Of a stretch of 64,000 nucleotides of DNA, positions 3,044-63,575 are shown piece after piece; the stretch's first letter is position 1; every line of letters starts with the position of its first letter. Location: positions 1,531 through 65,530 of the forward strand of contig JBAZOZ010000002.1 of NCBI GenBank assembly GCA_041648455.1. Direction: 5' to 3'. The translations under genes and the position numbers were made by a program. The stretch comes from Candidatus Pacearchaeota archaeon (GTDB taxonomy: Archaea; Nanobdellota; Nanobdellia; Pacearchaeales; GW2011-AR1). Below the pieces are notes generated by a model. It ran no database searches and was not told where the DNA came from. It was given only the letters and a program-made list of their open reading frames with translations.

Positions 3044-4666
3044 TTGAGAATTGATTTCATGACAGATAGACCAGTTGTTCTAATGCCGGAAGATATTCAA
3101 AGAATTATGGGAAAGGATGCGCAGAGAAATAATATTCTCGCTGCGAAGATGGTTGCTGAAATTGTAAAAACAACGCTCGGTCCGAAGGGAATGGATAAAA
3201 TGCTTGTTTCTCCGACGGGCGAGATTATTGTTACCAATGATGGCGTTACAATTTTGGAAGAAATGCAGATTGAACATCCCGCTGCAAAAATGATGGTTGA
3301 AATTGCGAGAACACAGGAAAGCGAAGTTGGCGACGGGACTACTACTGCGGTGATGATTGCAGGCAAACTTTTGGAAAACGCGGAAAAACTTTTAGATAAA
3401 AAAATTCATCCAACAATAATCACCAAAGGCTACAGAATTGCTGCTGAAAAATGCCAGGAAATTTTGAAAGATATTTCTTTGAGAATTACTGCGGATGATG
3501 AAGAAGTTTTGAAACAGATTGCGATGACGGCCATGACTGGAAAAGGCGCTGAAGATTCTCGGGAAAAATTTGCAGAAATTGTTGTTAAGGCTGTAAAGCA
3601 AATTGAAAATAACGGGCGGATTGATTTGAGGGATATTAAAATAGAAAAAGCAAAAGGAGACGGAATCAGCGACACAGAATTAATTTCTGGAATTGTTCTT
3701 GACAAAGAAAAAGTTTCATCTGAAATGCCTTCAATTATTCGGGCAGCAAGAATCGCTTTGATTGACTTTCCGTTGGAAATTAAAAATCCAGAGATTGACA
3801 CGAAAATTTCTATTTCTTCCCCCGAGCAATTGCAGAGTTTTTTGAATCAAGAAGAAACCACTATTAAAAACATGATTGAAAAAGTAAGGGAATCCGACGC
3901 GAATGTTGTTTTTTGCCAGAAAGGAATTGATGATTTTGCACAATATCTTTTAGCTAAGGTTGGAATTTATGCCTGCAGAAGAGTCGCTAAATCAGATATG
4001 GAAAAAATTGCAAAAGCGACACGCGGAAAAATTGTCAGTAATTTAAGTGAGTTGAGTTCTTTTGAATTAGGCGACGCTGAAGTTGTTGAAGAAGTAAAAC
4101 ATGGCGAAGATGTTTTAACTTACATTCGAGGATGCAAGAATCCAAAAGCTCTGACAATTTTAATTCACGGCGGGAGCGAACATGTTATCGACGAGATTAA
4201 ACGAGCGTTGATGGATGGATTAGGAGATGTTTCGTCTTCTTTGAAATCTGGGCTTGTTGTTCCTGGGGGAGGTGCGATTGAAATGGAACTTTCCAAAAGA
4301 TTGAGAGAGTTTTCTCAAGGGCTTAGTGGAAGAGAGCAGTTGGCTGTCGAGGAATTTGCTTCTGCTTTGGAATTTATTCCTGCAACTTTAGCTGAAAATG
4401 CCGGCATTGACCCAATTGATGTGCTTACTGAATTAAAATCTCGGCATGATTCTGGAGAAAAAAATGCAGGATTAAATTTATTTACAAATAAAGTTGAAAA
4501 TGTTTTGGAGGCGAGAATTATTGAGCCGTATAAAATTAAGAGCCAGGCAATTAATTCAGCGTCGGAAGTTGCAATTATGATTTTAAGAATTGATGATGTT
4601 ATTGCTTCGACTGGGAAAAAGAAAGGAATGAATTCTGCCGGAGGAATGCCGTCGATGGATTATTAA
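3044..4666 (+). CDS. ths: Thermosome subunit (group II chaperonin, Cpn60/TCP-1 family)
   Basis: 540 aa with [35 protein letters not shown] and VPGGGA motifs. Alternative start MTDRP at 3059. Confidence 0.9.
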
Positions 4667-5354: not shown

Positions 5355-5480
5355 CTGCATCTTGGAGTTGTCAAGAACCCTCGGAATAAATCCCAGGGCG
5401 TGTCTCGGGTTCTTGAACACCCCAAAAATTGTTTTTGCTTTCTCACGAATTAAAACAGGGAGTTTTACGCAAAAAACAAT
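5355..5480 (+). repeat. About 125-nt structured element, copy 1 (inverted copy at 40852..40977); candidate ncRNA or MITE-like element
   Basis: gtcaagaaccctcggaataaatcccagggcgtgtctcgggttcttgaacaccccaaaaattgtttttgctttctcacgaattaaaacagggagttttacgcaaaaaacaatttttgctg. It has a 9-bp stem CAAGAACCC/GGGTTCTTG and a roughly 16-bp stem CAAAAATTGTTTTTGC/GCAAAAAACAATTTTTG. The second copy carries compensatory substitutions. Confidence 0.7.
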
Positions 5481-5681
5481 TTTTGCTGTATTAATAAATA
5501 TTAAATTAAGAAACATCATCCATCCAAGATAATAAATTACACCTTTTTTGTTCATGAAAAAATAAAGAAAAGTTAATAAAAATTAGTATAGTGCAATTAA
5601 AAGACATTATTAATTTCCAATCCTATCTTTTGATATATTCGAGAAAACGAAATAGCAGATAGGAATTATTTTGATCTCTTA

Positions 5682-5990
5682 TTATAAATATTCTATTAAT
5701 TTATATATTTCATAACCAGCTCCTACGATACCGATAAGTAATGATAAACAACCTGTTGTTGCTTTACTATTTTTATTAACATTTGAAACGCAACTACAAT
5801 GGTCTTCACAATTACAGGTGTCCGCACATCTACAAACAATACAATCCTTATACTTATCATCGCTATTACACGGTGAAAATGTCTTATCCGAATTTAAATT
5901 TCTCTCTTTATTAAATTCATAAATTCCATTGATTTCTTGCTTTCCTAAAACTTCTCCATTCAAATCTTCTAATCTAAATTTATCTGTCAT
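5682..5990 (-). CDS. Cys-rich RiPP precursor-like peptide C (102 aa from MTDKF). Conserved leader plus a Cys-rich core (10 Cys) plus a C-terminal hydrophobic tail
   Basis: MTDKFRLEDLNGEVLGKQEINGIYEFNKERNLNSDKTFSPC...CIVCRCADTCNCEDHCSCV...TTGCLSLLIGIVGAGYEIYKLIEYL. The track ORF starts at a TTG at 6008; ATG at 5990 is preferred. Confidence 0.7.
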   Translation of the reverse strand: MTDKFRLEDLNGEVLGKQEINGIYEFNKERNLNSDKTFSPCNSDDKYKDCIVCRCADTCNCEDHCSCVSNVNKNSKATTGCLSLLIGIVGAGYEIYKLIEYL

Positions 5991-6004
5991 TTTATTTCTC
6001 GTTA

Positions 6005-6298
6005 TCAATATCTTATTAATTTATATATTTCATAACCAGCTCCTACGATTCCGCCAAGCAATAACAAACAACCAGTCGGTGATTTATGGTTTTGACTTTT
6101 ATTAACTCCATGATCTTCACAAACACAAGTATCTGCGCATCTACAAACAATCGGACAAGGGTTTTCATTTCTAGTACACGGCGAAAATGTCCTATCATCA
6201 TTTAATTCTCGTCGATTTTTAAACTGATAAACCCCATTAATTTCTTGTTCTCCTAAAACTCCTTCTTCTACATCTTCAAGTCTAAATTTGTTTTCCAT
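6005..6298 (-). CDS. Cys-rich RiPP precursor-like peptide B (97 aa). Same leader, a Cys-rich core (7 Cys) and a C-terminal hydrophobic tail
   Basis: MENKFRLEDVEEGVLGEQEINGVYQFKNRRELNDDRTFSPC...CPIVCRCADTCVCEDHG...TGCLLLLGGIVGAGYEIYKLIRY. Confidence 0.7.
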   Translation of the reverse strand: MENKFRLEDVEEGVLGEQEINGVYQFKNRRELNDDRTFSPCTRNENPCPIVCRCADTCVCEDHGVNKSQNHKSPTGCLLLLGGIVGAGYEIYKLIRY

Positions 6299-6315
6299 TT
6301 ATTTACGAATGGGTT

Positions 6316-6519
6316 TTAAATCGTTGCGCAGCCACAATGCTCTGAACAATAAGGTGAACAAACGTTAGGACAAGTTTTACCAGCACACTCACACATACCG
6401 GTACAGAATGTCCTATCTGAAACTAAGTTTCTTGTCGTTTTAAAATCATAAATTCCATTAATTTCTTGCTCTTCTTCAAATTCTTCACCAATATTATCTA
6501 ATCTAAATTTGTTTCCCAT
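6316..6519 (-). CDS. Cys-rich RiPP precursor-like peptide A (67 aa). Same leader and a 10-Cys core; no tail
   Basis: MGNKFRLDNIGEEFEEEQEINGIYDFKTTRNLVSDRTFCTGMCECAGKTCPNVCSPYCSEHCGCATI. Its start overlaps the maturase stop by 17 nt. Confidence 0.7.
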   Translation of the reverse strand: MGNKFRLDNIGEEFEEEQEINGIYDFKTTRNLVSDRTFCTGMCECAGKTCPNVCSPYCSEHCGCATI

Positions 6520-7876
6520 TTTGACCCCCTTTCAATTTTTGTTTTATTTCGTGAAATAAAATCCCCTGATTTATTGAACATCTTGAATTATTAATTGTGT
6601 CTTCTAAACTTCTTGATTGAGCATAGCCCTTCGCAAGACAATCACCACCACAATTATATTTCGCAAAACAATCTCTACAATTAGGAATATTTTCAACAAC
6701 TCTTCCTTGCAATCTTTTTATTTTTGTATCATCAAACTCAAATTGATTTTTATCAGGATTGTATTGCCCAACAATGAATATTTCAGCCATATCATCATCT
6801 TTTCTAGAGACCTCTAAGCACGTTGTAACTCTCCCTTCAGGAGATACAAGGAAGTTTTTCCCAGCAGCACCGCAAAAAGAATTATGGATTCCTTCTAATT
6901 TAGCTCCAGAATAATAAATCCCGACCTCTAATTTTTCAGCAGTTTGTTTAGCCTCAAGAAGATATTTTAGATAATCTTCTGGAGATGGTGCTCTTGCTTT
7001 TGTTGTTTTGCATCTTCCGCATTCAAACAAAGGCTCTAAATGAAAACTTTTATTTGAAGAAATTGAGTGAAAAAATTCTAAAATCTCAGACATTCTTGGT
7101 ACACTCTCTGCAGTAATTGTTGCCCTTATTCCATAAGGATATTTTTCTTCTTCTAATATTTTTATTGTCTCAACAACATAATCAGAAGAAGGCATAAACC
7201 GGTGGTTTGGTCCTGCCATTGGTCTCTGTGCATCTTGAATGTCTGCAGTACCGTCGAGAGAAATGTTTAATCTGTCAATATTTTTTAAAATCCATTCCAA
7301 ATCTCTATGATTTAAATTATTAAAAACACCGTTTGTTGCGCTTGAAACTCTTCCTTTCAAATTATTTTTTTCTGTCTGCTTATTAAAATATTCCACAGAT
7401 CTTTTTAAGAAATCTATATTTCCTCTTAAAAGAGGTTCTCCTCCCCCATGAAATCCAAGATGAATATCTTTGTTTCCGACTTTTAAACTATTTTTGACTA
7501 CTAAATCAATTGCAGATTTTGCAACATCAAATTCCATAATCTGTCCAACTCTTTCACCACCATGTGAATAACAATAAACACATCTGAGATTACAATTATA
7601 AGTTGGCATAAGTGTAATACTCGTAGGCTCATATTCAGAACCTTCTTTTTTTATATTGCAACTAGATTGAGATTCAACTAAAATTTTAGTCTTGATTAAT
7701 TGTTCTTTTATTTCTGGTTGTAAAGAAGATTCTTCTCCTTTTTTTATTTTTTTCAAAGCACCCACAACTCCCGAGCTCACAGAAACAACAGAACCCTCTA
7801 AAGGAACATAAAGAATAAATTTGTCTTCATCTGGGATAACAAAAAGCTCGTTATTGATTTCCATCTTATTTAACAC
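6503..7876 (-). CDS. Radical SAM / SPASM-domain peptide-modifying enzyme (anSME/sactisynthase-like) with N-terminal RRE/PqqD-like region
   Basis: CNLRCVYC (CX3CX2C) and GGGEPLL. The C-terminal SPASM pattern is FCGAAG...TTC...CRDCFAKYNCGGDC. The first 95 aa (FVIPDEDKFILYVPLEGSVVSV) resemble a peptide-binding RRE. Confidence 0.85.
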   Translation of the reverse strand: MLNKMEINNELFVIPDEDKFILYVPLEGSVVSVSSGVVGALKKIKKGEESSLQPEIKEQLIKTKILVESQSSCNIKKEGSEYEPTSITLMPTYNCNLRCVYCYSHGGERVGQIMEFDVAKSAIDLVVKNSLKVGNKDIHLGFHGGGEPLLRGNIDFLKRSVEYFNKQTEKNNLKGRVSSATNGVFNNLNHRDLEWILKNIDRLNISLDGTADIQDAQRPMAGPNHRFMPSSDYVVETIKILEEEKYPYGIRATITAESVPRMSEILEFFHSISSNKSFHLEPLFECGRCKTTKARAPSPEDYLKYLLEAKQTAEKLEVGIYYSGAKLEGIHNSFCGAAGKNFLVSPEGRVTTCLEVSRKDDDMAEIFIVGQYNPDKNQFEFDDTKIKRLQGRVVENIPNCRDCFAKYNCGGDCLAKGYAQSRSLEDTINNSRCSINQGILFHEIKQKLKGGQNGKQI

Positions 7877-8948: not shown

Positions 8949-10223
8949 ATGACATCATGGAAAAATATTAAAAAGAATTTAGATGAGAAAGTAGCTAATT
9001 CAAAAATAGGAAGAACTATCTTTTCAAGAACAGCAAAAGCTATTGCTTTAGGTAGTCTTATTACTACGGCATTGGTTGGAGGAGTTAAATATCATAACTG
9101 GAGAAGTGAGCCAGTTTATAAACATGAAATAAGTGCTGTAGCACCAAGAAACTATAATCCTAACAAAGCAAGCTTAGCAAACAAATTATTACAAGATTTT
9201 CCTACTGAAATTCCTGGGGCTGCTCAAGTTGATAAATATGTTATACCAGAAGCGAAATATTGTTTAGTTCATGTTAGACAAAAACACGTTGTTAAAGGGG
9301 ATTTTAAATATATTTATCATCTAACTGAAAAAGAAATTGAAAATATGAGGAAATTTTTTGAATTAAGTGAAAAAGAAATTAGGGATTTAATCAAAGATGA
9401 TTCTAAAGAAAATGTTTTTGAAAGAACTAAACGATTAAAAAAAACAACAGAAGTTCAAGCAGATATTTATCGAATTTTGGAAAATTTAATTTTAAATAAG
9501 GGATTAAAAGAGGTTTATGATGAGGGATTAACTCCTGAATTTGAAGATTGGAATACTCAAAAATTTAAGACAGATAAATTATGGGATAAAGTCTATAGAA
9601 CTCTTGGAAGTAATGAAAAAAGAGTAAGGGGAGAAATAAGTGAACTTGAGAAAAAAATTAAAGAAGGTAAACAGAGTGTTTCTGTTGCTCTAGAAGCGGA
9701 TTTTGAATATCCTAATGATAAAAATTGTATTGATAAATATCTTTCTAAATTAAGTCAAGAACTTGAAGAACAAAGAAAAAAATTACCTGAAGTTATTGGA
9801 GAAGATAATAAACATGAGCAAGAAAAGAAAAATAGATATCAGTATGATGCAGTGGACAAAGCAGGATTTAATTATGGAATAAAAATTATTCCTGCTGAAA
9901 CTCTTAAGGGGAATATAAGGGCATCACTTGCTATGGATGAAATCAAGAGAGGAAATAAAGATCCGAAATTAGATGAAAAGATATTCGATAACAGAGAAGA
10001 TATTCTTCTTCAATACATCGCCGATCAGAATGAACCTCTTGCAATAAGTGTTTATGGTGGAGCTCATGCATGGGGAGGGAGAGAGTCCTTTGGTACTTCC
10101 TATCCTACAACTGAAAGGACATCTCTAAAAGATAAAGATAATATTGCAGAATGGAATAAAAAACATCCCGACAAAAAATTTTCATTAATAGAAATTACAC
10201 CGACACATTATGAAAAGAAGTGA
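8949..10223 (+). CDS. Membrane-anchored hypothetical protein (single N-terminal TM, about 380-aa soluble domain)
   Basis: TM segment AKAIALGSLITTALVGGV; no recognisable catalytic motif. Confidence 0.45.
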   Translation: MTSWKNIKKNLDEKVANSKIGRTIFSRTAKAIALGSLITTALVGGVKYHNWRSEPVYKHEISAVAPRNYNPNKASLANKLLQDFPTEIPGAAQVDKYVIPEAKYCLVHVRQKHVVKGDFKYIYHLTEKEIENMRKFFELSEKEIRDLIKDDSKENVFERTKRLKKTTEVQADIYRILENLILNKGLKEVYDEGLTPEFEDWNTQKFKTDKLWDKVYRTLGSNEKRVRGEISELEKKIKEGKQSVSVALEADFEYPNDKNCIDKYLSKLSQELEEQRKKLPEVIGEDNKHEQEKKNRYQYDAVDKAGFNYGIKIIPAETLKGNIRASLAMDEIKRGNKDPKLDEKIFDNREDILLQYIADQNEPLAISVYGGAHAWGGRESFGTSYPTTERTSLKDKDNIAEWNKKHPDKKFSLIEITPTHYEKK

Positions 10224-10331
10224 AGTTTGATGTGGTAAATGTGTGGACAGACTTAGATATCTTCGATTTCCAGTACATTCAATTCTCTTTAATATCGAAT
10301 TGAAGTGGCTCGAACCCTTCTCGTTCGAATA

Positions 10332-10501
10332 TGCGCGATACGAGAATCGAACTCGTGTCTCAACGTTTTTGCTTTCTCGCGATTTCCGTCGGAGGCAATT
10401 TAAGAAATCGCCTTACAGCGTCGAAAAAGGAAGGTGTGTGAGAGGAAACCATAGGTTTCCTTCATTGGCAACGTTACGTTCTACCACTAAACCAATCGCG
10501 C
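10332..10501 (-). tRNA. tRNA-Gly(GCC) with a 98-nt intron at canonical position 37/38 (intron 10367..10464)
   Basis: Minus-strand read GCGCGAT-TG-GTTT-AGTGGTA-GAAC-G-TAACG-TTGCCA[intron]A-CGTTG-AGAC-ACGAG-TTCGATT-CTCGT-ATCGCGC-A. Acceptor 7/7, anticodon stem 5/5 (one G-U), T-stem perfect. The intron holds an 8-bp hairpin GCGATTTC..GAAATCGC. Confidence 0.6.
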
Positions 10502-10564
10502 ATAAATAATTCATAGAAAAATAATATTTAAAAGTTGCTGTGGCAACTTTTAACTCTTCAAGAT

Positions 10565-10682
10565 CAGAAAAACGATGCGCCATTGCATTTTTTAAGATGC
10601 GGTTTATTCGGCGCTCGTTTTTTGGATGCTCAAGATTCTAACCACACATCCAGTGTGTGGTTTTTGTCAAGAATCTTGACAT
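10565..10682 (+). repeat. Left copy of an approximately 118-bp inverted-repeat pair (partner 11655..11773)
   Basis: cagaaaaacgatgcgcc...gatgcggtttattcggcgctcgttttttggatgctcaagattctaaccacacatccagtgtgtggtttttgtcaagaatcttgacat. The reverse complement of 11655..11773 matches over the full length with a few substitutions. Internal hairpins AACCACACA/TGTGTGGTT and GTCAAGA/TCTTGAC. Confidence 0.8.
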
Positions 10683-10704
10683 AAAAATCTTGAACATTTA
10701 AAGA

Positions 10705-10950
10705 TTAGTGTTTACGAATTTCCCTTCTAGGAACGAGAATAGGACTGCCTGCGTATTCTGGAACTAATTCTTCTTCTCTCATTGGATATATTATATTTCT
10801 TTGTTTTGGGGTTGAGAGAAAACTTTTTCCATATTCTCCTTTTTCTTCTTTAACTGGATTTCCATCTTCATCTAATATCATAGGGCCAGAAATAACTCTT
10901 TCAATGTTTCCTTTAGGATTTCCAATAAAAATTCTATCGAATCTCATCAT
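10705..10950 (-). CDS. Hypothetical small protein (81 aa)
   Basis: ORF track; sits with tsaC between the inverted repeats. Confidence 0.45.
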   Translation of the reverse strand: MMRFDRIFIGNPKGNIERVISGPMILDEDGNPVKEEKGEYGKSFLSTPKQRNIIYPMREEELVPEYAGSPILVPRREIRKH

Positions 10951-11020
10951 GTTATTAGAATTTTGAAGTTTAAAATCTTTATTGTGGTACTTTCTGATGA
11001 TTGTTTTGGCATATTTCTCT

Positions 11021-11602
11021 TCATCTTTTTATTTCTTTGCCGCCTATTATTAATGTTGATGGTCTGCCTTCTAATTTTCCAGCATCTATTATTATATCAA
11101 TTTTATCTTCGATTTCTTTTGGGATTTCATTTATAGATTCTATTGCAGATTCTCCAGAGAGATTTACAGAAGTTGTTATAAATGGTTTTCCAGAGTTTTG
11201 AATTATTTTTGTGAATTCATTATATGGAATTCTTATTCCTATTGAATCTGTATTAGAAACATGTTTTAAAAAATCAAGATTTTTCTTCTTTAAAATTATT
11301 GTATAGGGACCTGGAAGATATTTATTTAAATCTGTGTCAATTATCAAATTTTCCTCTATCCATTTTATATAAGGAGCAATAATTGATAATGGTTTATCTC
11401 TATCTCTTTGTTTTATTTGTTTTATTTTTTCAACAGAATCTTTATTTTCTGCATCACATCCAAGCCCATATATTGTATCTGTTGGATAAATAAATATTTT
11501 ACCTTCTTCAATTCCAATTAATATTTCTTCTTCATCTATTTCATTTATCTTTATTATTTTCATATATAATCCAGTAGACAATAGGTTAAAAAATTTAAGC
11601 AT
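11021..11602 (-). CDS. tsaC: L-threonylcarbamoyladenylate synthase, TsaC/YrdC/Sua5 family
   Basis: YPTDTIYGLGCDA, LPGPYTIIL, IGIRIP, ITTSVNLSG and STLI motifs. Likely start at MKIIKIN (11563). Confidence 0.8.
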   Translation of the reverse strand: MLKFFNLLSTGLYMKIIKINEIDEEEILIGIEEGKIFIYPTDTIYGLGCDAENKDSVEKIKQIKQRDRDKPLSIIAPYIKWIEENLIIDTDLNKYLPGPYTIILKKKNLDFLKHVSNTDSIGIRIPYNEFTKIIQNSGKPFITTSVNLSGESAIESINEIPKEIEDKIDIIIDAGKLEGRPSTLIIGGKEIKR

Positions 11603-11654
11603 TATTGTAATCGAGAAATATGGCCCTACGAGGGACTCACAAAAGCATTTTCAT

Positions 11655-11773
11655 GATGTCAAGATTCTTGACAAAACCACACACTTAAGTGTGTGTGGTT
11701 AGAATCTTGAACATCCAAAAAACGAGCGCCGAATAAACCGCATCTTTCAAGGTGCGGTGGCGCATCGTTTTTC
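11655..11773 (-). repeat. Right copy of the approximately 118-bp inverted-repeat pair
   Basis: atgtcaagattcttgacaaaaccacacacttaagtgtgtggttagaatcttgaacatccaaaaaacgagcgccgaataaaccgcatc...gcgcatcgtttttctg is the reverse complement of 10565..10682. Confidence 0.8.
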
Positions 11774-11807
11774 TGATTTATATATTTTAGTAAAAATGCT
11801 TTCGCTC

Positions 11808-11834
11808 GGTTGAACCTCGGACTACTCGGTGTAA
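11808..11834 (-). other. 27-nt duplicate of the tRNA-Val 3' portion (anticodon loop through T-loop), att-like fragment
   Basis: gttgaacctcggactactcggtgtaaac is identical to 12512..12538 inside tRNA-Val(TAC) and diverges on both sides. Confidence 0.6.
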
Positions 11835-11911
11835 ACTAATATATCATAAAGCATCTAAATAAAAAGAGCACTTTAAGATAGCTCGTTTAACACGAATGGT
11901 TTTTATTTAGT

Positions 11912-12484
11912 TTAGATATATTCCTTCATACTTTTAATTAACAACATTATGGCTTCATACTTGTCTTTCACTATTTCTTTAGCTTCTGGCAATGTCAGCT
12001 TAATATCCCAATTTCTTTGCATTTTTTTCTCTATTCTTATAACTGCATCTTCAAAAGAGTCTGTTGTTTTTAAAAAAACATTAAATAAATCTAAAAATGT
12101 ATCAAAGTGCGCCATTGCATCTGCACATGCAACAATTTTAGCTTCCAATGTTTCTGGATTTGGTTCAGCTCTTCCCCTATGAGCTAAAACACAATGAGCT
12201 ACTTTTTCTATAAATTCATTATCATACCCCAATTCTTTTAGAAATTTTTTACTTTGTTCTGCTCCGTCGATATGATGGGTATTTTCTTTTACAAATTCCT
12301 TTACATCATCTCTATTAAGTGAACGAGCAATATCATGTAAGTATGCTGCCATTTCTACAACATCTTTGTCAGCTTTTAATTTGTCTGCTAATAACATCGC
12401 ATTTTTTACAACAGCAGAAATATGGCACTTAAAATCTCCTTCTTCATATTTTTCCTTAATTAATCTTAATACTTTTTCTTCCAT
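11912..12484 (-). CDS. HD-domain phosphohydrolase
   Basis: H..HDIAR, ...H...H.. and CADAMAH motifs. The track start 12505 overlaps tRNA-Val, so ATG at 12484 (MEEKVL) is chosen. Confidence 0.7.
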   Translation of the reverse strand: MEEKVLRLIKEKYEEGDFKCHISAVVKNAMLLADKLKADKDVVEMAAYLHDIARSLNRDDVKEFVKENTHHIDGAEQSKKFLKELGYDNEFIEKVAHCVLAHRGRAEPNPETLEAKIVACADAMAHFDTFLDLFNVFLKTTDSFEDAVIRIEKKMQRNWDIKLTLPEAKEIVKDKYEAIMLLIKSMKEYI

Positions 12485-12497
12485 GTTATTGTTTGAA

Positions 12498-12568
12498 TGG
12501 CCCATCGAGGAGTTGAACCTCGGACTACTCGGTGTAAACGAGTCATTTTACCGCTAGACTAATAGGCC
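12498..12568 (-). tRNA. tRNA-Val(TAC)
   Basis: Minus-strand read GGCCTAT...ACTCG-TTTACAC-CGAGT-AGTC-CGAGG-TTCAACT-CCTCG-ATGGGCC-A. Acceptor 7/7 (one G-U), perfect anticodon and T stems, GG in D-loop, no encoded CCA. Confidence 0.7.
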
Positions 12569-12793
12569 GTAAAATAATATTATTAATTTTGATTAAAAAT
12601 GTTTCTGTTCTTAAAATTTCCCTTTCTTTTAAGTATAGACTATCTAAATATTTTCTATCTCTACAATTCACTAATTCATGACTTGCAGATATAGTGAAAG
12701 ATATAATTCTTCCCATCTAATCAACGACAAAATAAGGAAAAATAAGTCGTTGATTATAGTAACTTTTATAAATGGAAACTTCATTTTTTAATC

Positions 12794-14356
12794 ATGCAAA
12801 ATAAAACCTCTCAAACAAATGACGAAGAAATTCCTGGAATGGAGCTTGACAGGAAGTATGACAAAAAAAATATTCTTCCTGAAAATCCTACGGAAACGAA
12901 AAAAGAAATGGAGAAAACTAAAAAGGAATTGGATAAGTTTAAAAATTCTATTGTTAAAAAATATCCGTTCGTTCAGTCGCTCAGTATTTTGCCTCCACAA
13001 ACGATTAAAATGTTTATTGATGAAGAGGAAGTTCCCAAGGAAACTGAAAAGTATATTCATCTTTATATGATTCTTTCTGAGGATAAATTCAAGGAAATAC
13101 CGAAGGTAAAACAAGAAATTCTCGGAGAGATTGAAACTCTTCAGAAAAATATGAAACAAAAAATTTGGCTGCAAATTAAAACACCGGTTGATGTTTGGGA
13201 AGCATGTTTGGATTCAAAATTTGAAATCTCGTCGGCAATTGCAATTTCTTTCCCGTTATATGACAAGGGTTTTTTAGGCGCGTTGAGAGTTGCTGAAATT
13301 CATAAATCTCTGGTTTTGCAAAAGTTTGAAAAATATGTTGTCTCTTATGTTATTGGCGGAAGTCTTGTTAGAGGAGAAGCTATTCCAACTTCTGATGTTG
13401 ATGTTTTTATTGTTATAAATGACACCGACGTGAAACAAATGCCAAGATTGGAATTGAAAGAAAGACTTAGAGGAATTATTTACAAATATATCGGAGAGGC
13501 GACTGCTTTGGCTGGAGTAAAAAATGAATTGTCACCTCAGATTTATCTCTTGACAGATTTTTGGGAATCGGTTAAAGATGCTCATCCTGTAATTTTTACT
13601 TTTATCCGAGATGGAATCCCAATTTATGATCGTCATACTTTCCTTCCATGGAAAAATCTTTTAAGAATGGGAAAGTTGAAACCTTCTCCCGAGGCTATTG
13701 ACATGTTTATGAAAACTGCGGACAAGACAAAAGAAATGATTGAGAGAAGATTGATCGATGCTATGATTGATGTTTATTACGGAGTTTTGACTCCGAGCCA
13801 GGCGTTAGTTATGCTTTATGGTTTGCCTCCTCCGACGCACAAAGAGGCTCCTATTTTAATGAAGAAAATTTTTGTTGACAAGGAAAAAATGCTGGAGAAA
13901 AAATATGTTAATTTTCTTGACAAGGCAGTTAAGATGTTCAAGGCATATGAGCATGATCCAAAATACAAAGTTTCTGGAAAACAAATTGACGAGCTTGTGA
14001 AAGAATCTGAAGAATACATAAAAAGATTAAAAGAATTGAGAGAGCAAATTGAAAAAAGATCTCAGGAAAAAACTATCGAGCAAACTTACAAAGATGTTTT
14101 TGAACTCTTGAAAACAATTGTTGGAAATAAATCTCAGGAAAAAACTATCGAAGATTTTGAAAAAAATTTTGTGAAAAAAGGACAATTTTCTCCTCAAGAT
14201 TTAAGGATATTGAATGATATTGTAGGAGCCAGAAAAGAATTCAAGAAGGGAAAACTTGATTCGCATAAAGTAGATAATGCAAGAAAGAACGCGTCTATTT
14301 TAATTAGTGATTTAATTGAATATAATCAAAGATGTGAACTTGTGAAAAAAAAGTGA
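12794..14356 (+). CDS. Nucleotidyltransferase-domain protein (Pol-beta superfamily) with helical C-terminal extension; paralog of 17323..18180
   Basis: GGSLVRGEAIPTSDVDVFIV (GS...DxD) and shared block PVI..I..G..I.D......GK.K.SPEAI. Confidence 0.55.
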   Translation: MQNKTSQTNDEEIPGMELDRKYDKKNILPENPTETKKEMEKTKKELDKFKNSIVKKYPFVQSLSILPPQTIKMFIDEEEVPKETEKYIHLYMILSEDKFKEIPKVKQEILGEIETLQKNMKQKIWLQIKTPVDVWEACLDSKFEISSAIAISFPLYDKGFLGALRVAEIHKSLVLQKFEKYVVSYVIGGSLVRGEAIPTSDVDVFIVINDTDVKQMPRLELKERLRGIIYKYIGEATALAGVKNELSPQIYLLTDFWESVKDAHPVIFTFIRDGIPIYDRHTFLPWKNLLRMGKLKPSPEAIDMFMKTADKTKEMIERRLIDAMIDVYYGVLTPSQALVMLYGLPPPTHKEAPILMKKIFVDKEKMLEKKYVNFLDKAVKMFKAYEHDPKYKVSGKQIDELVKESEEYIKRLKELREQIEKRSQEKTIEQTYKDVFELLKTIVGNKSQEKTIEDFEKNFVKKGQFSPQDLRILNDIVGARKEFKKGKLDSHKVDNARKNASILISDLIEYNQRCELVKKK

Positions 14357-14427
14357 TTGGCTTCAGAGAAAAGTTCTGAATATAAAATGAAAAAAACAAG
14401 AAATTTTTTACCTCTTAAACACAGGAT

Positions 14428-14823
14428 GTGTTCAAGATGAGAAGACAAAGAAATTTGATTGTTGGTAAGGAAGAAGCCATTCCGGTTGGAGCGGTTTTTC
14501 AAAGAAGTAAATATTATTTTATCGTCGGGAATTCTGATGAGAATGGAATGATTAATTATTGTTCTATTGATAGATTTGCTTTTGCATCTGAAAGATTAAA
14601 ATATAATGATGGAATAGAACACCTCACAATTCAAGAAAGCCCGTTTTATTTTTCAAGGCAGCACATCAATTGGATTAGAAATTATCTTAATAATAACGAA
14701 GCCAAAAATCTTAGCAAAATAGAAATAGATAATCTTAAGCAAGATTTAGATGTTGCAGCCAGAGATGGATTAAAAAAGGATGTTAAGAAGTTGATTGAAA
14801 TTTGTTCTGAGAAGAAGATTTAA
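14428..14823 (+). CDS. Hypothetical protein (131 aa)
   Basis: ORF track only. Confidence 0.35.
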   Translation: MFKMRRQRNLIVGKEEAIPVGAVFQRSKYYFIVGNSDENGMINYCSIDRFAFASERLKYNDGIEHLTIQESPFYFSRQHINWIRNYLNNNEAKNLSKIEIDNLKQDLDVAARDGLKKDVKKLIEICSEKKI

Positions 14824-17322: not shown

Positions 17323-18180
17323 TTATTTTATGATATCCTTAACTAATTGCACCATGACATCCAAAAAATCTTGAGTTTTTTTCTGCCATTCGTCTATTTC
17401 AACACCTTTCAAATCGGTTACTTCCCCATGAGAAATTTTTTTATGAAGCAAGAATAAATCTCTGTAATCAATGACATATTTCATTTTTAATTTTCCTGTA
17501 TTCACAAAAGTTTCTTTCAAATCAATTGGAATGTGTTCTGGCGACGGAGGAAGAACGTTTGATGCAATCAACGCCGCGTGAGAAGAATCAACCATTGCCC
17601 AAAATAATCCTTCTATAGAATTTAATTCTGATGCTTTGCTTCTTGCTAAATGCTGGGGTGCTCTTTCAAGACAGCTGTAAATTGCTTCGGGGGTTGATTT
17701 TATTTTTCCCGTAATTAATAAATATTTTAATGGTTCAAAAAATCCTGCGAAGTCAATCAGAGATTCTCCATATCGCAATATATTTATAATGACGGGGTCG
17801 CCCCTCATCAAATCTTCCCACCAGGTGCTTAATTTCACCGTGTTTATGTGCAGTTCTCTGCTGTAAGGATTTGCTCTTACCATCTTATCGAGCTCTTCTC
17901 TATACCAGGCAATTAGCTCTTGGTCCCATTTTATTGAAACGTCGTCTATAACAATGATTATATCAATATCAGAGCCTTTGGTGCTTGTTTGCTTTATTGT
18001 CGAGCCGAATAGAATTGTTGATTTTACTATTTTGTTGAATTTTTGGTAAACCTTTGTTGCAAAGTCCATTGCTATTTCAGATTCTGTTTTCAAATTCAAT
18101 GTTGAAACATTTTTTTTATTAGTTATTTTAGGTTTGTCTACAACTTTAGAAATTTTCTTCACACTCTTTTCTTTTTTCAT
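17323..18180 (-). CDS. Nucleotidyltransferase-domain protein (MNT-like N-terminus plus HEPN-like C-terminus); paralog of 12794..14356
   Basis: ILFGSTIKQTSTKGSDIDIIIVIDD and DPVIINILRYGESLID...GKIKSTPEAI. An AGGAA-type array lies upstream at 18181..18236. Confidence 0.55.
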   Translation of the reverse strand: MKKEKSVKKISKVVDKPKITNKKNVSTLNLKTESEIAMDFATKVYQKFNKIVKSTILFGSTIKQTSTKGSDIDIIIVIDDVSIKWDQELIAWYREELDKMVRANPYSRELHINTVKLSTWWEDLMRGDPVIINILRYGESLIDFAGFFEPLKYLLITGKIKSTPEAIYSCLERAPQHLARSKASELNSIEGLFWAMVDSSHAALIASNVLPPSPEHIPIDLKETFVNTGKLKMKYVIDYRDLFLLHKKISHGEVTDLKGVEIDEWQKKTQDFLDVMVQLVKDIIK

Positions 18181-18813
18181 TTTGAAAAATTCCTGTTTTT
18201 GAAAGGCAAAAAACTTCTTGTTTTTTTCATTTTCTTTTTATTAACATCATTTCAACAATGACAGAAAATATTAGTGCTCCTATTGAGAGATTAATATCCA
18301 CTGCGTTGAAACATGCGGTTTTTAATGTTCTTATTCCTATGAGGAATATCACTGCAAAGTCAATTAGCAAAGGCAGTATTCTTAACATCCTAAATTATTC
18401 CAAATGCCCTCGCTAATAAAACCACAATGATTATTATTCCTATTATCCATAATATCTTATCTAAATTTCTTTGCAACCAATTAGTCTTCTTCACCATCTT
18501 TTATAATTTTGTTATGTCAATATAGTTTTTAAATTTGTTTATTTTAATCGTGCTTGTAAACTCGCAGATTCTCTTTCCCACCCAACCCGCGCCTGTGATT
18601 TGTTATTATCTTTAAATTTGTCAAATCACAAATGCTCTGCTCCCATTTCGAATTTATTATTTAATTTAAAGACGGTAAATTCAAAATGTTCGCCAACCCA
18701 GATAACGTCAACAAATGTTTTATCATTATTATCTAAATACATTAATTAGTTAAACAAATTATCTCAAGAGTTTTTATGTGATCTTCTTTTCTTCAAATTC
18801 AAAAACCAAAATC

Positions 18814-20876: not shown

Positions 20877-21204
20877 ATTATCCTCCCTTGAAAAATGAGA
20901 CCACCCATACAGTTAACGCTAAAGCAAGCAATATCCAAGCAATTATTTTCATCCAATCAAATCTCATTTTATTATTAGTAATTTTTAATTTATATATTTA
21001 TTGAATTAGATATTGATAATTTAATAGTTAAACAAATATACCTTTTCCCGCCCAACTCGCGCCCGTGATTTGTTATTATATTTAATTTGTCAAATCACAA
21101 ACGCTCGCCCAACCCAGATAATCTATTTTTATGATTTATACATTAACAATTTTCAGCAAAGAGCCTTAGATTTATCTTGGTTCGAGGCGATTAATTTCTA
21201 CTTT

Positions 21205-24452: not shown

Positions 24453-24709
24453 TTGATGAATATGAAAATACAAAAATTTCTAATTTTTGTCCTTCAAAAA
24501 CAAGAAGTTTTAGAAGAAATAGGAAATTTTTTACCTTTTACAGAAATTAGAAATTTCTGTCCTACGGAAAATAGGAAAAACAAAAAAGTTTTTCATCTCT
24601 CCAAATCAAGAAGATTTGAAGATAAGAAATTTTCCGTCCCGTTCAAAACGGGAGATTTTGAAGGTTACAAAACAGGAAGTTTTGAAAGTAAAAATAGGAA
24701 ATTTGAAAA
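24453..24709 (+). repeat. AGGAA-core module array upstream of the GluRS-like gene; the first 80 nt are a conserved block shared with 39489.. and 62373..
   Basis: atgaaaatacaaaaatttctaatttttgtccttcaaaaacaagaagttttagaagaaataggaaattttttacctttta...aacaggaagttttgaaagtaaaaataggaaatttgaaaaATG. Confidence 0.8.
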
Positions 24710-28753: not shown

Positions 28754-29022
28754 TCTATTTTCTAAGATTTTTTATGACAGCTAATTATCGGCATCACGAG
28801 TAGAGAATTTGATTTCTTTAGCTGTGCGTTTTCTGAAGACAATATTTTTATACCATATTCAACTGAATTAAATGATAGATGCTTTGCGATTTCCAGCGGA
28901 GGCAATTTAAGAAATCGTTTTCCGCGTCGAGAAGGAAGTTGATTGCCTCAAGAATGAAAATTCTTGATGGTGTTCAGGAATCTTTGATTCCTGACATAAA
29001 GAAACCGCAGGTATCTTACAAT

Positions 29023-29094: not shown

Positions 29095-29305
29095 CTTTCA
29101 GTCGTGAGTCGAATAAAAAAGGAGAAACAAAGATGAAAAAAATAAAATATTCAATTGCAAAATCTGGGCTGTGCCTTTGCACAGACGGAATTAAAGATTT
29201 TGCAAATATAGAAAATACAGAAATCGAAGATTTCTGTCCTTACAAAACAGGAAGTTTTGAAAGTAGGAAATTTTCTATCTCATTAAAATTCAGGAGAATT
29301 TTAAG

Positions 29306-29707
29306 ATGAAAATCTTATTTGTCTGCAAGCACAACAGATTTAGAAGCAAGGTAGCTGAAGCATATTTCAATAAAATAAATAAAAACAAGAATATTAAAGT
29401 AGCAAGTGCCGGAATTTTCAAGGGGTTTCCAACTGAACCCATCGTCGTTAAAATTGGAAAAAGATACGGATTAAATATAAACAAAAATACAAATGGGTTA
29501 AAAGAAGAAGCAGTTAAAAAGATTGATTTATTGATAATTGTAGCGAATGACGTTCCTGCATATTTATTTAAAAGCAAAGTAAAGAATATCCTTGTCTGGA
29601 AAATTCGTGATGCAAATTCCCTCGATAAAAAAGAAATTGAAAAGATTATGAAAAAAATATTTAAGAAGATTGATGAATTAAATAGAAAAATAGGGAAACT
29701 AAAATGA
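29306..29707 (+). CDS. Low-molecular-weight protein tyrosine phosphatase / ArsC-like
   Basis: ILFVCKHNRFRS (CX5R P-loop) at the N-terminus. Confidence 0.75.
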   Translation: MKILFVCKHNRFRSKVAEAYFNKINKNKNIKVASAGIFKGFPTEPIVVKIGKRYGLNINKNTNGLKEEAVKKIDLLIIVANDVPAYLFKSKVKNILVWKIRDANSLDKKEIEKIMKKIFKKIDELNRKIGKLK

Positions 29708-38941: not shown

Positions 38942-39487
38942 ATGGATATAATCTTAGTTAGACATGGTGAATCTGAACATAATGCTAAATTAAGTGAAGA
39001 TAATGATTCTGCTTTGACTAAAAAAGGGAGAAAACAGGCAGAATATGTAGGTAAAAAATTGCAAAAAATAAAGATATCTAAAATTTACACAAGCGGATTA
39101 ATAAGAGCTAAACAGACGGCGCAAATTATCTCCAAAATTAATAAAATATCTAAGATAAAATATTTTGATGGATTAAATGAATATCCTGGAAGATATTTGA
39201 AGCAAAAATGGAGATGGTTATTTAATAAAAGATTAAAATTATTAAAAAAATTAATAAAAGATATTTCTAAAGACAAAAAAAAAGATAAGACAATATTAAT
39301 TGTTGCTCATGGAATTACTAATAGAATTATAATAGGTTATCTTTTACAGATTCCTCTGAAAAAACAGCTCCTATTTTTCAGACAACACAATACAGGTGTT
39401 AATATTTTGATATGGGATAATGATTTTAAAAACTGGAAGCTGGAATCTATGAATGATATTTCACATTTGCCGGAGAGGTTAAGATGA
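38942..39487 (+). CDS. Histidine phosphatase (phosphoglycerate-mutase-like) family protein
   Basis: ILVRHGESEHN, ...R...T and VAHG motifs. Confidence 0.75.
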   Translation: MDIILVRHGESEHNAKLSEDNDSALTKKGRKQAEYVGKKLQKIKISKIYTSGLIRAKQTAQIISKINKISKIKYFDGLNEYPGRYLKQKWRWLFNKRLKLLKKLIKDISKDKKKDKTILIVAHGITNRIIIGYLLQIPLKKQLLFFRQHNTGVNILIWDNDFKNWKLESMNDISHLPERLR

Positions 39488-40830: not shown

Positions 40831-40851
40831 TATAATTATTTTATATACTAA

Positions 40852-40977
40852 TACAGCAAAAATTGTTTTTTGCGTAAACTCCCCGTTTTAACTCGTGAGA
40901 AAGCGAAAACAATTTTTGGGGTGTTCAAGAACCTGAGACACGCCCCGGAATTTATTCCGAGGGTTCTTGACATACTA
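40852..40977 (-). repeat. About 125-nt structured element, copy 2 (inverted relative to 5355..5480)
   Basis: Reverse complement reads gtcaagaaccctcggaataaattccggggcgtgtctcaggttcttgaacaccccaaaaattgttttcgctttctcacgagttaaaacggggagtttacgcaaaaaacaatttttgctgta. Confidence 0.7.
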
Positions 40978-45035: not shown

Positions 45036-45402
45036 ATAAAAACAACCTCGCGTTTTCCGCGAGAATCATAGATTCTCGGGGTCTGAAAAATCCATTTTGG
45101 ATTTTTCTGATTTTGCATTTTCCCTTTCGTGTCGGAAGGGCGATTTTTTTCAACTCGAGCCCAGGTTTGCTTCAAGTTTGCCTTCGAAATAAATGCAAAC
45201 CTAAACTCTCGACTCGAGCATTGGAAAGCCGTTATGGATTAAAAATATTTGTCGCATTCCAATACTCTCGACCTCCTATGAAAATCGCATAGCAATAAAT
45301 CTTATTAAAAAATAGTTATTTAATTAGTTATAAATCTGATGTTCGTGGGTTTATTAATTTATTGGAGGAAAAGTATTTAATATAATCTCCCGAATAAAAT
45401 TT
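45036..45402. promoter_or_regulatory. Highly structured 367-bp divergent intergenic region (multiple perfect palindromes)
   Basis: CTCGCG-ttttc-CGCGAG; CAGAAAAATCCA-tttt-TGGATTTTTCTG (12-bp perfect); AGGTTTGC...GCAAACCT; repeated CTCGAG. Confidence 0.5.
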
Positions 45403-63574: not shown

Positions 63575-63575
63575 A

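Follow-up and report, generated by a model that had tools for sequence, protein, structure and literature searches.

The two inverted-repeat arms that bracket the tsaC gene in the 64,000-nt stretch of DNA analysed here (the window), which comes from a Candidatus Pacearchaeota MAG, both belong to a family of dispersed, non-coding repeats with two hairpins, which we name E-element. The E-element is a previously uncatalogued constituent of the intergenic DNA of Pacearchaeota/Woesearchaeota-type DPANN archaea, and literature on DPANN MITEs and ncRNAs and on archaeal RAYT yielded no description of it. We consider it fairly probable that the arms are dispersed MITE/REP-like elements with possible terminator features and that the tRNA-Val fragment next to them is a separate, older att-type scar. 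The locus is composed of the following features:

10332..10501, minus strand: tRNA-Gly(GCC) (Rfam RF00005, 50.2 bits)
10558..10683, minus strand: E-element copy A, the left arm (IR-A)
10705..10950, minus strand: 81-aa ORF, no Pfam family
11021..11563, minus strand: tsaC, YrdC-type threonylcarbamoyl-AMP synthase (Sua5_yciO_yrdC; Pfam PF01300, 1.4e-41)
11655..11782, plus strand: E-element copy B, the right arm (IR-B)
11809..11836, minus strand: tRNA-Val fragment, anticodon loop to T loop (28/28 identical to 12512-12539)
11912..12484, minus strand: HD-domain phosphohydrolase gene (Pfam HD, 3e-17)
12498..12568, minus strand: intact tRNA-Val(TAC) (ARAGORN; Rfam 58.4 bits)
12794..14356, plus strand: 520-aa nucleotidyltransferase-domain gene, used as synteny anchor

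Within the window, a repeat search paired 10563-10648 with 11692-11777 (86 nt, 92% identity) and 10662-10682 with 11656-11676 (21 nt, 100% identity), while BLAST and MAFFT matched the whole arms, 10563-10682 and 11656-11777, over 123 columns at 89.4% identity (E ~1e-38). The near-identical inverted repeats described in the first-pass annotation are therefore real, as inverted copies of 89% identity, and they bracket tsaC and the 81-aa ORF. Their exact subtype has only two copies in the 64 kb. Each arm forms two strong hairpins, on either strand, with minimum free energies of -42 to -62 kcal/mol and z-scores from -5.6 to -10.8 (-5.6 and -7.2 for copy A; -10.8 for copy B, at -62 kcal/mol), and folds of this strength were reached by 0 of 200 shuffles, which bears out the earlier observation of two hairpins per repeat. 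The compensatory differences that were said to distinguish the two copies had been overstated, since the differences between copy A and copy B are indels in the loops and C/U changes on one side only, opposite G, so that one strand has wobble pairs and the other has C-A mismatches. Both-sided compensatory changes are seen only against homologues from other genomes, for copy B those on L084, L083 and L009. The sense ('AUGUC') strand of copy A is the minus strand of the window, where the element follows the 81-aa ORF and precedes tRNA-Gly; copy B has its sense strand on the plus strand and is located between the tRNA-Val fragment and HD 3' end on one side and the start of tsaC on the other.

The core of the E-element consists of (U)AUGUCAAGA, a variable hairpin, UCUUG[A]ACAUCC, A5-7, a second variable hairpin, U5-8 and (Y)UGAU, with (A)TGTCAAGA as the conserved 5' end. 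For a covariance model, R1, 10 elements from other genomes were used, with the window sequences excluded. Applied to the 64 kb with filters off, it returned copy B (54.4 bits, E = 2.5e-8) and copy A (52.0 bits, E = 7e-8) as the top two matches and detected four further copies:

5367..5494, plus strand: E-element, class I subtype (~125 nt; R1 34.5 bits)
28939..28998, minus strand: hybrid copy (R1 22.6 bits, E = 0.037; also motif match and alignment)
40848..40974, minus strand: E-element, class I subtype (R1 36.8 bits), 147 nt from tRNA-Trp
45055..45116, plus strand: diverged small E-like element (R1 22.9 bits, E = 0.033)

The copy at 5367..5494 is 93% identical to 40842-40972, and this subtype is common to 30+ copies on metagenome contigs. 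In the hybrid copy, an E-type hairpin 1 (AUGUCAGGAAUC..GAUUCCUGAACACC) is fused to an 'M module', which also forms the tRNA-Gly intron. The diverged element at 45055..45116 lacks the AUGUCAAGA base, keeps A5..U5-CUGAUUU and resembles an element nested in the L014 copy. Among the 185,579 GTDB species genomes scanned, the motif GTCAAGA-N12-42-TCTTGAACAYCCMAAAA occurred at 8 places, all in Woese-, Pace- or Nanoarchaeota MAGs and three of them in one MAG. The motif GTCARGA-N8-38-TCYTGAACAYCCMAAAA was found at no fewer than 118 metagenome loci, roughly a third to half of them DPANN-type and the remainder an unrelated moss repeat; 'Class II' metagenome matches (GGGGGGTCAAGAACTCAAAAC...), which represent an unrelated repeat on ORF-poor, moss-associated contigs and a chance motif match, were excluded. 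Viral contigs gave no matches to the N12-42 form of the degenerate GTCARGA motif. An Infernal search against Rfam 15, proposed in the first-pass annotation as a check, brought only tRNA to threshold in the window, at the locus itself and likewise in 17 related loci, in gathering as well as permissive searches; the best non-tRNA matches in the window were miRNA models at 19-20 bits, compared to gathering scores of 89-90.

The hairpins are maintained across the family. In the class I alignment, 98.1% of cells are paired and both-sided changes occur at 10 of 28 pairs, a level reached by 0 of 500 shuffles, with slid-partner controls giving at most 3. Comparison of the IR-type copies with L084, L083 and L009 revealed 12 pairs with both-sided changes, and these copies keep 5' bulges of 6-7 nt in both hairpins. 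A single bulged A in the 3' arm of hairpin 2 is retained in the copies in which this hairpin is expanded (IR-A, IR-B, L084 and L083). At the foot of hairpin 2, the A-U pairs do not vary, in contrast to the covarying pairs next to them. The hairpin interiors, in turn, undergo expansion, shrinkage, inversion and nesting across the family, as seen from a nested copy in L014 (compared with L087) and an inverted interior in L032. Two candidate readings were rejected: a 41-codon ORF across the class I consensus (ATG...TAA) runs into early stops in other members, and assignments of the hairpins as C/D or H/ACA sRNA, K-turn or BHB failed because the boxes are not conserved and no pocket is present across the family.

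The strong conservation of the core and of the asymmetric bulges from genome to genome is equally compatible with a functional RNA or with a binding site for a protein. We weighed the explanation that E-elements are functional structured RNA genes or modules (stable sRNA, protein-binding 3'-UTR element or processing signal) and that the arms are paralogues kept by selection, and regard it as possible but clearly less probable than dispersal. Besides the conserved core, the covarying stems and the persistent asymmetry of the bulges (6-7 nt on the 5' side; bulged A in 3' arms), it draws on a conserved AUC...GAU able to close hairpin 2 in 3 of 5 folded copies, on the copies in L005 and L085, each of which comes immediately after a tRNA gene of the same strand (+9 and +8 nt, respectively), and on the presence of a related hairpin together with the M module within tRNA introns, which are certainly transcribed. 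However, neither a conserved 5' flank nor a conserved upstream promoter was detected across class I copies, orientation is random with respect to neighbouring genes and includes placement between divergent starts, and copy number is uneven, with 2-3 copies per 10 kb in some places and none in ~100 kb of close relatives. Furthermore, some copies have lost the interior of hairpin 2, carry it inverted or have another copy within it, neither strand is favoured by the G-U versus A-C counts, and the Rfam searches returned no matching family.

The link to tRNA introns comes from tRNA-Gly(GCC), whose earlier assignment at 10332..10501 is upheld by Rfam although ARAGORN does not call it at default settings. 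It carries a 101-nt intron in the anticodon loop at position 37/38, whereas L135 and L131 carry intron-less tRNA-Gly(GCC). Introns of ~100 nt that are homologous to each other reside in this tRNA-Gly(GCC) and in the tRNA-Lys(UUU) of L085, with free-standing copies elsewhere. A more far-reaching idea, which we put forward only tentatively, is that E-elements might constitute a new DPANN-specific class of hairpin-recognised elements, either mobile DNA without TIRs and TSDs that is served by a single-strand-specific enzyme or a functional RNA module, whose hairpin/M-module relatives insert into tRNA anticodon loops or originate there. If this were true, these relatives would tie dispersed repeats to archaeal tRNA intron gain.

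The reading of the E-elements as dispersed DNA is grounded in their genomic distribution. Class I copies have sharp ends and 33 distinct flank pairs with unrelated flanks. None of 74 copies lies inside an ORF of at least 100 aa, copies occur in either orientation, and all four configurations of neighbouring genes are represented, with ~18% of the fully resolved copies located between divergent gene starts. L017, L085, L095, L122 and L125 contain 2-3 copies each, with up to three per 10 kb, and where copies are paired outside the window, they lie 1.2-35 kb from each other in every relative orientation. By contrast, ~100 kb of close relatives (L128, L131, L132, L135, L136, L139, L140, L142 and L143) are free of E-elements. 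A tRNA gene is present within 300 nt of only 4 of 61 copies; the proximity to tRNA genes in the window is therefore not a family property, and a general tRNA association was rejected.

We additionally searched for hallmarks of transposition. Target-site duplications did not exceed background among 33 class I copies (offsets 0-4, k = 2-8), and terminal inverted repeats were looked for and not found, the nearest approach being a weak match by eye, in class I only, of 7 out of 10 positions between the AUGUCAAGAA 5' end and the reverse complement of the 3' end. Neither an insertion sequence with E-element-like ends nor an empty orthologous site occurred in ~1.2 Mb of loci. In agreement with the first-pass annotation, which had reported no transposase, the Pfam scan of window ORFs of at least 110 aa contained no transposase, integrase or invertase domain; several of these ORFs have no Pfam match, and two ORFs at 62668-63998 fall outside the scan. 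Among the recurrent neighbour proteins of 54 loci there was likewise no transposase, including Y1 HUH enzymes (RAYT/TnpA). Since no empty site, TIR, TSD or partner transposase was found, we infer mobility from distribution only. On this basis, E-elements would be MITE/REP-like DNA that is mobile without being autonomous or that spreads by recombination, and an enzyme encoded elsewhere would probably recognise them in the form of single-stranded hairpins.

In all copies, the base of hairpin 2 is flanked by an A-tract and a T-tract; read on either strand, the element thus presents a hairpin followed by oligo-T. A consensus pattern scan of 10200-12700 found 7 terminator-like sites, mostly inside the arms, compared to 0.8 expected. 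The pattern makes it plausible that the E-element stops archaeal RNA polymerase in both directions or acts as an insulator; copy B (antisense) would then terminate the transcript of HD, and copy A (sense) that of tsaC-81aa. Termination as the only explanation was discarded, as the configurations of neighbouring genes look random. Placement for termination is doubtful because the ~18% of resolved copies between divergent starts need no terminator and because the G-U versus A-C counts point to neither strand.

With the arms assigned to a dispersed family, the arrangement around tsaC looks incidental, arising from two insertions or from a local duplication. A specific form of the latter, in which both arms stem from one local inverted duplication of a resident E-element and the tRNA-Val fragment from a local partial duplication, appears improbable to us. 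It would account for the arms being mutually closest and sharing subtype-specific expansions of both hairpins, and for a fragment that is 100% identical to the adjacent tRNA, without the tRNA 3' end and without an integrase. But the IR subtype is also present on the unrelated contigs L084 and L083, and the subtype itself is therefore dispersed; moreover, the junction and flank of the fragment recur in L128 and L146, and the L128 copy reaches the tRNA 3' end in a classical att layout.

The three readings which the first-pass annotation had offered for the repeats (termini of a decayed integrated element, an invertible segment or paralogous structured RNAs) did not fare equally: paralogous structured copies stood, widened to a dispersed multi-copy DPANN family, and the other two fell. 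The first of these, a decayed integrated element or composite transposon that imported tsaC and the 81-aa ORF between tRNA-Gly and tRNA-Val, is largely refuted, and we rate it as very improbable. It was suggested by inverted repeats of 120 bp around a 1-kb cassette beside tRNA genes and a tRNA fragment, by the hypervariability, among relatives, of the interval from Cpn60 to the 520-aa gene, and by the rarity of the 81-aa ORF, which has six matches in 1.84 billion representatives besides the identical (self) entry, three of them small proteins of 74-103 aa with 40-45% identity. However, tsaC is, judged by its homologues, a single-domain housekeeping gene conserved by vertical descent, with identities that appear to grade accordingly; it has >2000 homologues, and the 120 matches listed show 62-87% identity, with named sources all from DPANN (mostly Pace-/Nanoarchaeota). 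In L135-L138, a tRNA-Gly, tRNA-Val, tsaC, DUF7670, 513aa, L35Ae arrangement occurs without E-element. The synteny comparison that had been suggested thus shows tsaC, in the closest syntenic relative, beside both tRNA genes and the 520-aa gene without the repeats, though gene order and orientation differ in L135. The DUF7670 gene after tsaC in L135 has no homology to the 81-aa ORF. The conserved block around the anchor is 520aa-128aa-L35Ae-L10e, and L142 and L143 have other neighbours around tsaC. Family copies are mostly single, in dozens of unrelated contexts, with pairs elsewhere in all orientations, and the Pfam-scanned ORFs of the window lack transposase and integrase domains.

The remaining alternative, a programmed switch that inverts the 1-kb tsaC segment with the arms as recombination sites, can cite the inverted orientation and 89% identity of the repeats and the opposite orientation of tsaC relative to the 520-aa gene in the window and L135, yet we deem it highly unlikely, as no invertase or recombinase domain was found nearby, the window and the independent assembly L001 are collinear with the same orientation, an arm divergence of 11% argues against frequent exchange, and L135 also has both tRNA genes flipped and reordered, which therefore reflects larger or multiple rearrangements rather than simple inversion of a repeat-bounded segment. 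The segment is a possible substrate for homologous inversion; none is seen in the window or L001.

The tRNA-Val fragment is unrelated to the inverted repeats and represents a separate, older event. It is located 661 nt from the intact tRNA-Val (703 nt start to start) on the same strand, with the HD gene between them at 11912-12484, as the first-pass annotation had stated; the duplication itself is equally sound at 28/28 identities, with the coordinates given there off by 1-2 nt. Its junction, ATTA/GTTTACAC, is common to L128 (8672-8728) and L146 (~3161-3190), and the 5' junction is shared with these two together with ~14 nt of flank. In the window the fragment ends in the T loop (GGTTCAAC/CGAGCG), without the tRNA 3' end. 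L128, in comparison, has the tRNA-Val 3' half in full at a distance of 1.06 kb from the tRNA, reaching ...ATGGACCA, with the same junction and P-arm (TTTATGGTAAATTA/GTTTACAC) and an MNT/HEPN-type cargo between the repeats (an NTP_transf_2 gene and a 136-aa gene). L146 has the layout tRNA-Val-HD-ATTAGTTTACAC, and L144/L145 have yet another gene after tRNA-Val. On the other side, the junction of tRNA-Val (minus) and the 520-aa gene (plus) is also present in L128, L132 and L144/L145, while the downstream cargo differs, placing the intact tRNA-Val at the edge of a hypervariable region. HD homologues grade in identity from 95% to 40% across DPANN, and the gene adjoins tRNA-Val in L146 too.

From the sequences compared, the fragment fits an old att-type scar. 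It is probably the remnant of a duplication of the tRNA-Val 3' part at a tRNA-linked hypervariable site, shared by descent with related lineages, in which the cargo between tRNA and scar differs. The earlier proposal of an integration scar consequently holds in outline, through the same junction with different cargo in relatives, and is weakened by the missing 3' end, by the absence of integrase and mobile-element genes between the tRNA-Val repeats, where HD is the only gene, and by HD not being typical mobile cargo. attL/attR tRNA-fragment scars mark archaeal and bacterial integrative elements. The site resembles them in the direct repeat of a tRNA 3' part starting in the anticodon loop, in a junction conserved across lineages with variable cargo and in its position at a synteny break; it differs in that the window repeat stops in the T loop instead of the tRNA 3' end and in that the 'island' is only 0.7 kb, has no integrase and contains as sole gene an HD gene conserved in DPANN. 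tRNA gene fragments are discussed in PMC9897764.

What looked like a cassette is thus a housekeeping gene that by chance lies between two members of a common repeat family. DPANN genomes are tiny and streamlined, so that a conserved multi-copy intergenic element, with about six copies in 64 kb, is unexpected. If E-elements are mobile, they would point to an unrecognised transposition system in uncultured archaea and to a source of gene-order scrambling around tRNA genes; if they are functional RNAs or terminators, they would be among the first lineage-specific regulatory elements defined for Pace-/Woesearchaeota. In practical terms, repeats and tRNA-fragment scars are spots of MAG assembly breaks or mis-joins and of mis-calls by tRNA finders.

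Compared with known systems, the likeness to archaeal sRNAs is limited. A conserved ACA one nucleotide after hairpin 1 recalls box H/ACA sRNA, and IR-B happens to begin with AUGAUGU and end with CUGA, which recalls box C/D sRNA, but the C-box-like string is confined to IR-B and missing from copy A and from all other members, and the E-element has no pseudouridylation pocket, K-turn, K-loop or Rfam match. With bidirectional terminators and archaeal oligo-T signals it shares the constant A5-7 and T5-8 flanks of hairpin 2; ordinary intrinsic terminators, however, do not form sequence families in which a second hairpin and a linker are conserved, and E-element copies also lie between divergent promoters. 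MITEs and the MITE-like Correia/NEMIS, ERIC/IRU, RUP and BOX repeats are likewise dispersed non-coding repeats of 60-180 nt that fold as RNA, can carry promoters or terminators, form subfamilies by internal indels and contain nested copies, whereas the TIRs and TSDs that define MITEs were not found in the E-element and no related autonomous IS was identified.

REP/REPIN elements and PATEs often double as terminators or mRNA stabilisers. The E-element departs from them in several respects: no RAYT/TnpA (Y1 HUH) gene was found near its copies (neighbours of 54 loci) or in the Pfam-scanned ORFs of the window, it starts with (A)UGUC without the GTAG/CGTC tag of REP/REPIN, its two hairpins are unlike each other, as opposed to IS200/IS605 LE/RE, and its core is modular, with fixed A/T tracts and loops accepting large insertions. 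Its hosts are DPANN archaea, for which no literature report of such elements was found. REP/REPIN and IS200/IS605-derived PATEs, as reviewed in PMC3116915, PMC2817692, PMC3733652 and PMC6006769, nonetheless share with the E-element that they are short, non-coding, multi-copy and strictly intergenic, that they form imperfect palindromes with extrahelical bases, and that they occur without TIR or TSD in either orientation, with patchy, lineage-specific expansion.

The locus lies in an AT-rich window (30.8% GC), which is archaeal as it encodes the ribosomal proteins L35Ae and L10e, and a second assembly, L001 (ENA ERZ27249422), is collinear with it at 99.9% identity across 21.5 kb. The 520-aa and tsaC proteins of the window match, without any difference, NCBI entries labelled as a Candidatus Pacearchaeota MAG. 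The first-pass annotation had described near-identical inverted repeats with two strong hairpins each, bracketing tsaC and an 81-aa ORF, and a duplicated piece of tRNA-Val beside the right arm, followed by an HD gene and the intact tRNA. This layout was recovered, with folding z-scores of -5.6 to -10.8 for the hairpins:

10563-10682 and 11656-11777, inverted: the arms, copy A (IR-A, left) and copy B (IR-B, right), 89.4% identity across 123 columns
Between the arms: tsaC (Pfam Sua5_yciO_yrdC, 1.4e-41), with the 81-aa ORF alongside
10332-10501 (-), left flank: tRNA-Gly(GCC), Rfam 50.2 bits, with a 101-nt anticodon-loop insert (missed by ARAGORN)
10528-10553 (-), between copy A and tRNA-Gly: perfect 11-bp hairpin UUAAAAGUUGC CACA GCAACUUUUAA, followed by a T-rich tail
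11809-11836, right flank: exact 28-nt copy of tRNA-Val(TAC), anticodon loop to T loop; then the HD gene and the intact tRNA

Compensatory differences between the copies, as had been claimed, were not observed; the arms differ instead by loop indels and one-sided C/U changes.

Both arms are members of a dispersed family of non-coding two-hairpin repeats, which we call E-elements. Comparing the window with itself brought out a further inverted pair (5369-5500 and 40842-40972, 93% identity; hereafter class I), which differs from the arms in sequence but shares their layout and short conserved strings, as well as a partial third type at 28939-28998. The motif GTCAAGA-N12-42-TCTTGAACAYCCMAAAA, scanned against 185,579 species with one genome each, gave eight matches, all in Woesearchaeota, Pacearchaeota or Nanoarchaeota MAGs and three of them within a single MAG; a degenerate N12-42 form of the motif had no viral matches. 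With the motif relaxed slightly, at least 118 metagenome loci matched. About half of them belong to an unrelated repeat, found on moss-associated contigs with few ORFs, and were dropped; the remainder lie on gene-dense contigs consistent with DPANN archaea. The discarded repeat, GGGGGGTCAAGAACTCAAAACAACAAACC... (L010, L011, L016, L019, L044 and many Ga0116xxx, Ga0209208 and Ga0209611 loci), is a chance match to the motif from a large family on probably eukaryotic contigs, and is part of a longer repeat, since the homology continues into its flanks for hundreds of bases. The E-element core reads (U)AUGUCAAGA - variable hairpin - UCUUG[A]ACAUCC - A5-7 - variable hairpin - U5-8 - (Y)UGAU. When the whole window was searched, filters off, with a covariance model (R1) built from ten E-elements of other genomes only, the top matches were the two arms (54.4 bits, E = 2.5e-8, and 52.0 bits), followed by the two class I copies (36.8 and 34.5 bits) and weak, diverged copies at 45055-45116 and 28939-28998. 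The Rfam search proposed for the repeat matched no family.

We consider the E-element structure to be selected. Across an alignment of 29 class I copies, pairing is kept in 98.1% of cells and 10 of 28 pairs show both-sided changes, values that none of 500 shuffles reached, with at most three both-sided pairs in slid-partner controls. The arm subtype likewise shows both-sided changes at 12 pairs relative to L084, L083 and L009; even the "conserved" base CAAGA/UCUUG becomes CGGGA/UCCCG in L084. A 6-7-nt 5'-side bulge in hairpin 1 is kept in all five folded copies, and in the four copies whose hairpin 2 is expanded (both arms, L084 and L083) that hairpin likewise has a 5'-side bulge of 6-7 nt, with one A bulging from its 3' arm. 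The A-U pairs that form the base of hairpin 2 are invariant, although adjacent pairs covary, and G-U versus A-C counts give no strand preference. Selection on the structure is thus evident, but the data do not distinguish RNA from single-stranded DNA.

The distribution is that of an intergenic, multi-copy repeat. None of 74 copies lies within an ORF of at least 100 aa, all four neighbour-gene configurations occur in roughly random proportions, and only 4 of 61 copies have a tRNA within 300 nt. Flanks are unrelated among 33 class I copies (33 distinct pairs), and the ends are sharp (TGTCAAGA ... GTATYAA), with neither a target-site duplication nor a conserved upstream promoter. Two to three copies each occur on contigs L017, L085, L095, L122 and L125. 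Presence is patchy: the closest relatives of this locus have no E-element in about 100 kb of sequence. Among the fetched loci no empty site was seen, and no recurrent transposase-like neighbour was found. Interiors are modular, as in three class I variants:

L032 4578-4691 (-): hairpin 2 interior inverted
L014 816-990 (+): another small element inserted within the loop of hairpin 2 (cf. L087)
L020 1638-1717 (-): interior deleted

We therefore propose that E-elements are non-autonomous DNA that spreads in the way of MITEs or REPs, probably via hairpin recognition on single strands. The nearest rival is a functional RNA. The earlier suggestion of two paralogous structured RNAs holds in so far as the arms belong to one structured family; this family is widely dispersed, and its structure fits single-stranded DNA equally well. 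As a local duplication the arms would have arisen in place, but the arm subtype itself also occurs on the unrelated contigs L084 and L083, and hairpin 1 of the arms is common to L009, L012 and L105.

Two further rivals read the arms as termini of a decayed element carrying tsaC or as a switch inverting it. The synteny comparison suggested in the first-pass annotation bears on both. The block 520aa-128aa-L35Ae-L10e is kept in relatives, and everything upstream of the 520-aa gene differs. A tRNA-Val (-) abuts that gene in the window, L128, L132 and L144/L145, and is followed by HD in the window, by an NTP_transf_2 gene and a 136-aa gene in L128, by tandem tRNA-end repeats in L132 and, in L144/L145, by a small ORF that looks membrane-protein-like by eye. 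In L135-L138 (tsaC protein 86% identity) the order is tRNA-Gly (no intron), tRNA-Val, tsaC, DUF7670, 513aa, L35Ae, with all genes on one strand and no E-element; in L142 and L143 tsaC has yet other neighbours. HD is conserved across DPANN and adjoins tRNA-Val already in L146 (HD 95% identity). The same landmarks are thus linked in relatives, but reshuffled. As tsaC is a conserved core gene and L135-L138 hold the same landmarks without E-elements, the arms are not the ends of an inserted tsaC element. Inversion fares no better, since the difference between the window and L135 also involves tRNA genes and is therefore not the repeat-bounded segment, L001 is collinear, and the Pfam-scanned ORFs of the window contain no transposase, integrase or invertase domain. 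The inverted arrangement around tsaC is most likely incidental.

L001 carries a 13-nt tandem duplication, ATTTATCTTTATT, at window position 11542 (tsaC codons ~4-8; L001 ~8749), which frameshifts tsaC just past its start and leaves a gene call of 108 aa only; either the population includes a variant whose tsaC is broken, or the assembly is wrong here. Within the 424-aa ORF 8949-10223, the 135 nt at 9437-9571 differ from L001 by ten substitutions, six of them at A, and one indel that splits the ORF in L001, versus three substitutions and one 13-nt insertion in the remaining 21.4 kb. A DGR-type origin is only a thought, because the window holds no template repeat for this cluster.

The tRNA-Val fragment has a history of its own, with no demonstrable link to the inverted repeats. 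L128 holds the full tRNA-Val 3' half, 1.06 kb from its intact tRNA, with the same junction and flank (TTTATGGTAAATTA|GTTTACAC versus TTTATGATATATTA|GTTTACAC in the window); L146 has a decayed copy directly after HD, and L132 and L135 have further tRNA-end repeats. Judged from this sequence layout, the fragment appears to be an att-type scar, left at a tRNA site that has been used repeatedly, and seems older than the split of these lineages. The integration scar proposed earlier thus gains from the shared layout and junction, but a simple integrated element at tRNA-Val is made less likely by a window copy without the tRNA 3' end, by the missing integrase and by a "cargo" that is a housekeeping gene. 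In both L135 and L132, tRNA genes are surrounded by partial copies of themselves: at L135 5000-5700, the tRNA-Gly 3' end TCCCGGTCCGCGCA is repeated past an 80-nt insert, and tRNA-Val has two repeats of its 5' part upstream and one of its 3' end downstream; L132 9350-9590 comprises tandem ~108-nt units, each ending in tRNA-Val T arm and acceptor.

Other repeats accompany these features. The 101-nt tRNA-Gly(GCC) intron is made up of a hairpin, the string ACACC and an "M module" (GCGAUUUCUUAAAUUGCCUCCGACGGAAAUCGC), and is homologous to the tRNA-Lys(UUU) intron on contig L085 (2753-2930, -) and to free-standing intergenic copies, one of them fused to an E-type hairpin 1. Sites listed with it are window 28880-28998 (-) and 40760-40800 (+) and L106 5281-5306 and 5479-5508. 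The tRNA-Gly(GCC) of L135 and L131 is intron-less, and the comparison suggests an intron gained from, or lost to, a dispersed repeat. About 12 copies of gaaaaaaatagGAAAttttttacc...caGGAAAtttttaaRATG, sometimes in tandem, end at start codons and look like a shared promoter/5'-UTR/ribosome-binding module (1165-1283, 14383-14454, 18168-18234, 24459-24700, 29240-29313, 39481-39653, 41153-41308, 51549-51618, 56907-57143, 57574-57715, 60507-60634 and 62365-62499). The window also contains a tandem repeat of 78-nt period (1839-2068), a small gene of ~97-102 aa present in three or four diverged tandem copies (5670-6522) and two short dispersed pairs of 90-93% identity (18574-18637 with 21044-21106; 24462-24556 with 62365-62457).

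Archaeal RNA polymerase is known to terminate at oligo-T tracts. Given the fixed A and T tracts, either strand of an E-element copy would read as a hairpin plus oligo-T signal, and the locus has 7 terminator-like sites versus 0.8 expected. The HD transcript would end at copy B, and that of tsaC and the 81-aa ORF at copy A. As an account of the "tsaC cassette" the E-element reading is ordinary; of moderate interest is that DPANN archaea carry a structurally conserved repeat family that had not been catalogued. E-elements do not qualify as MITEs, because they have neither TIR nor TSD, and differ from REPs in having no REP tag and no known RAYT, but they appear to work in the manner of REP/PATE or MITE-type repeats.
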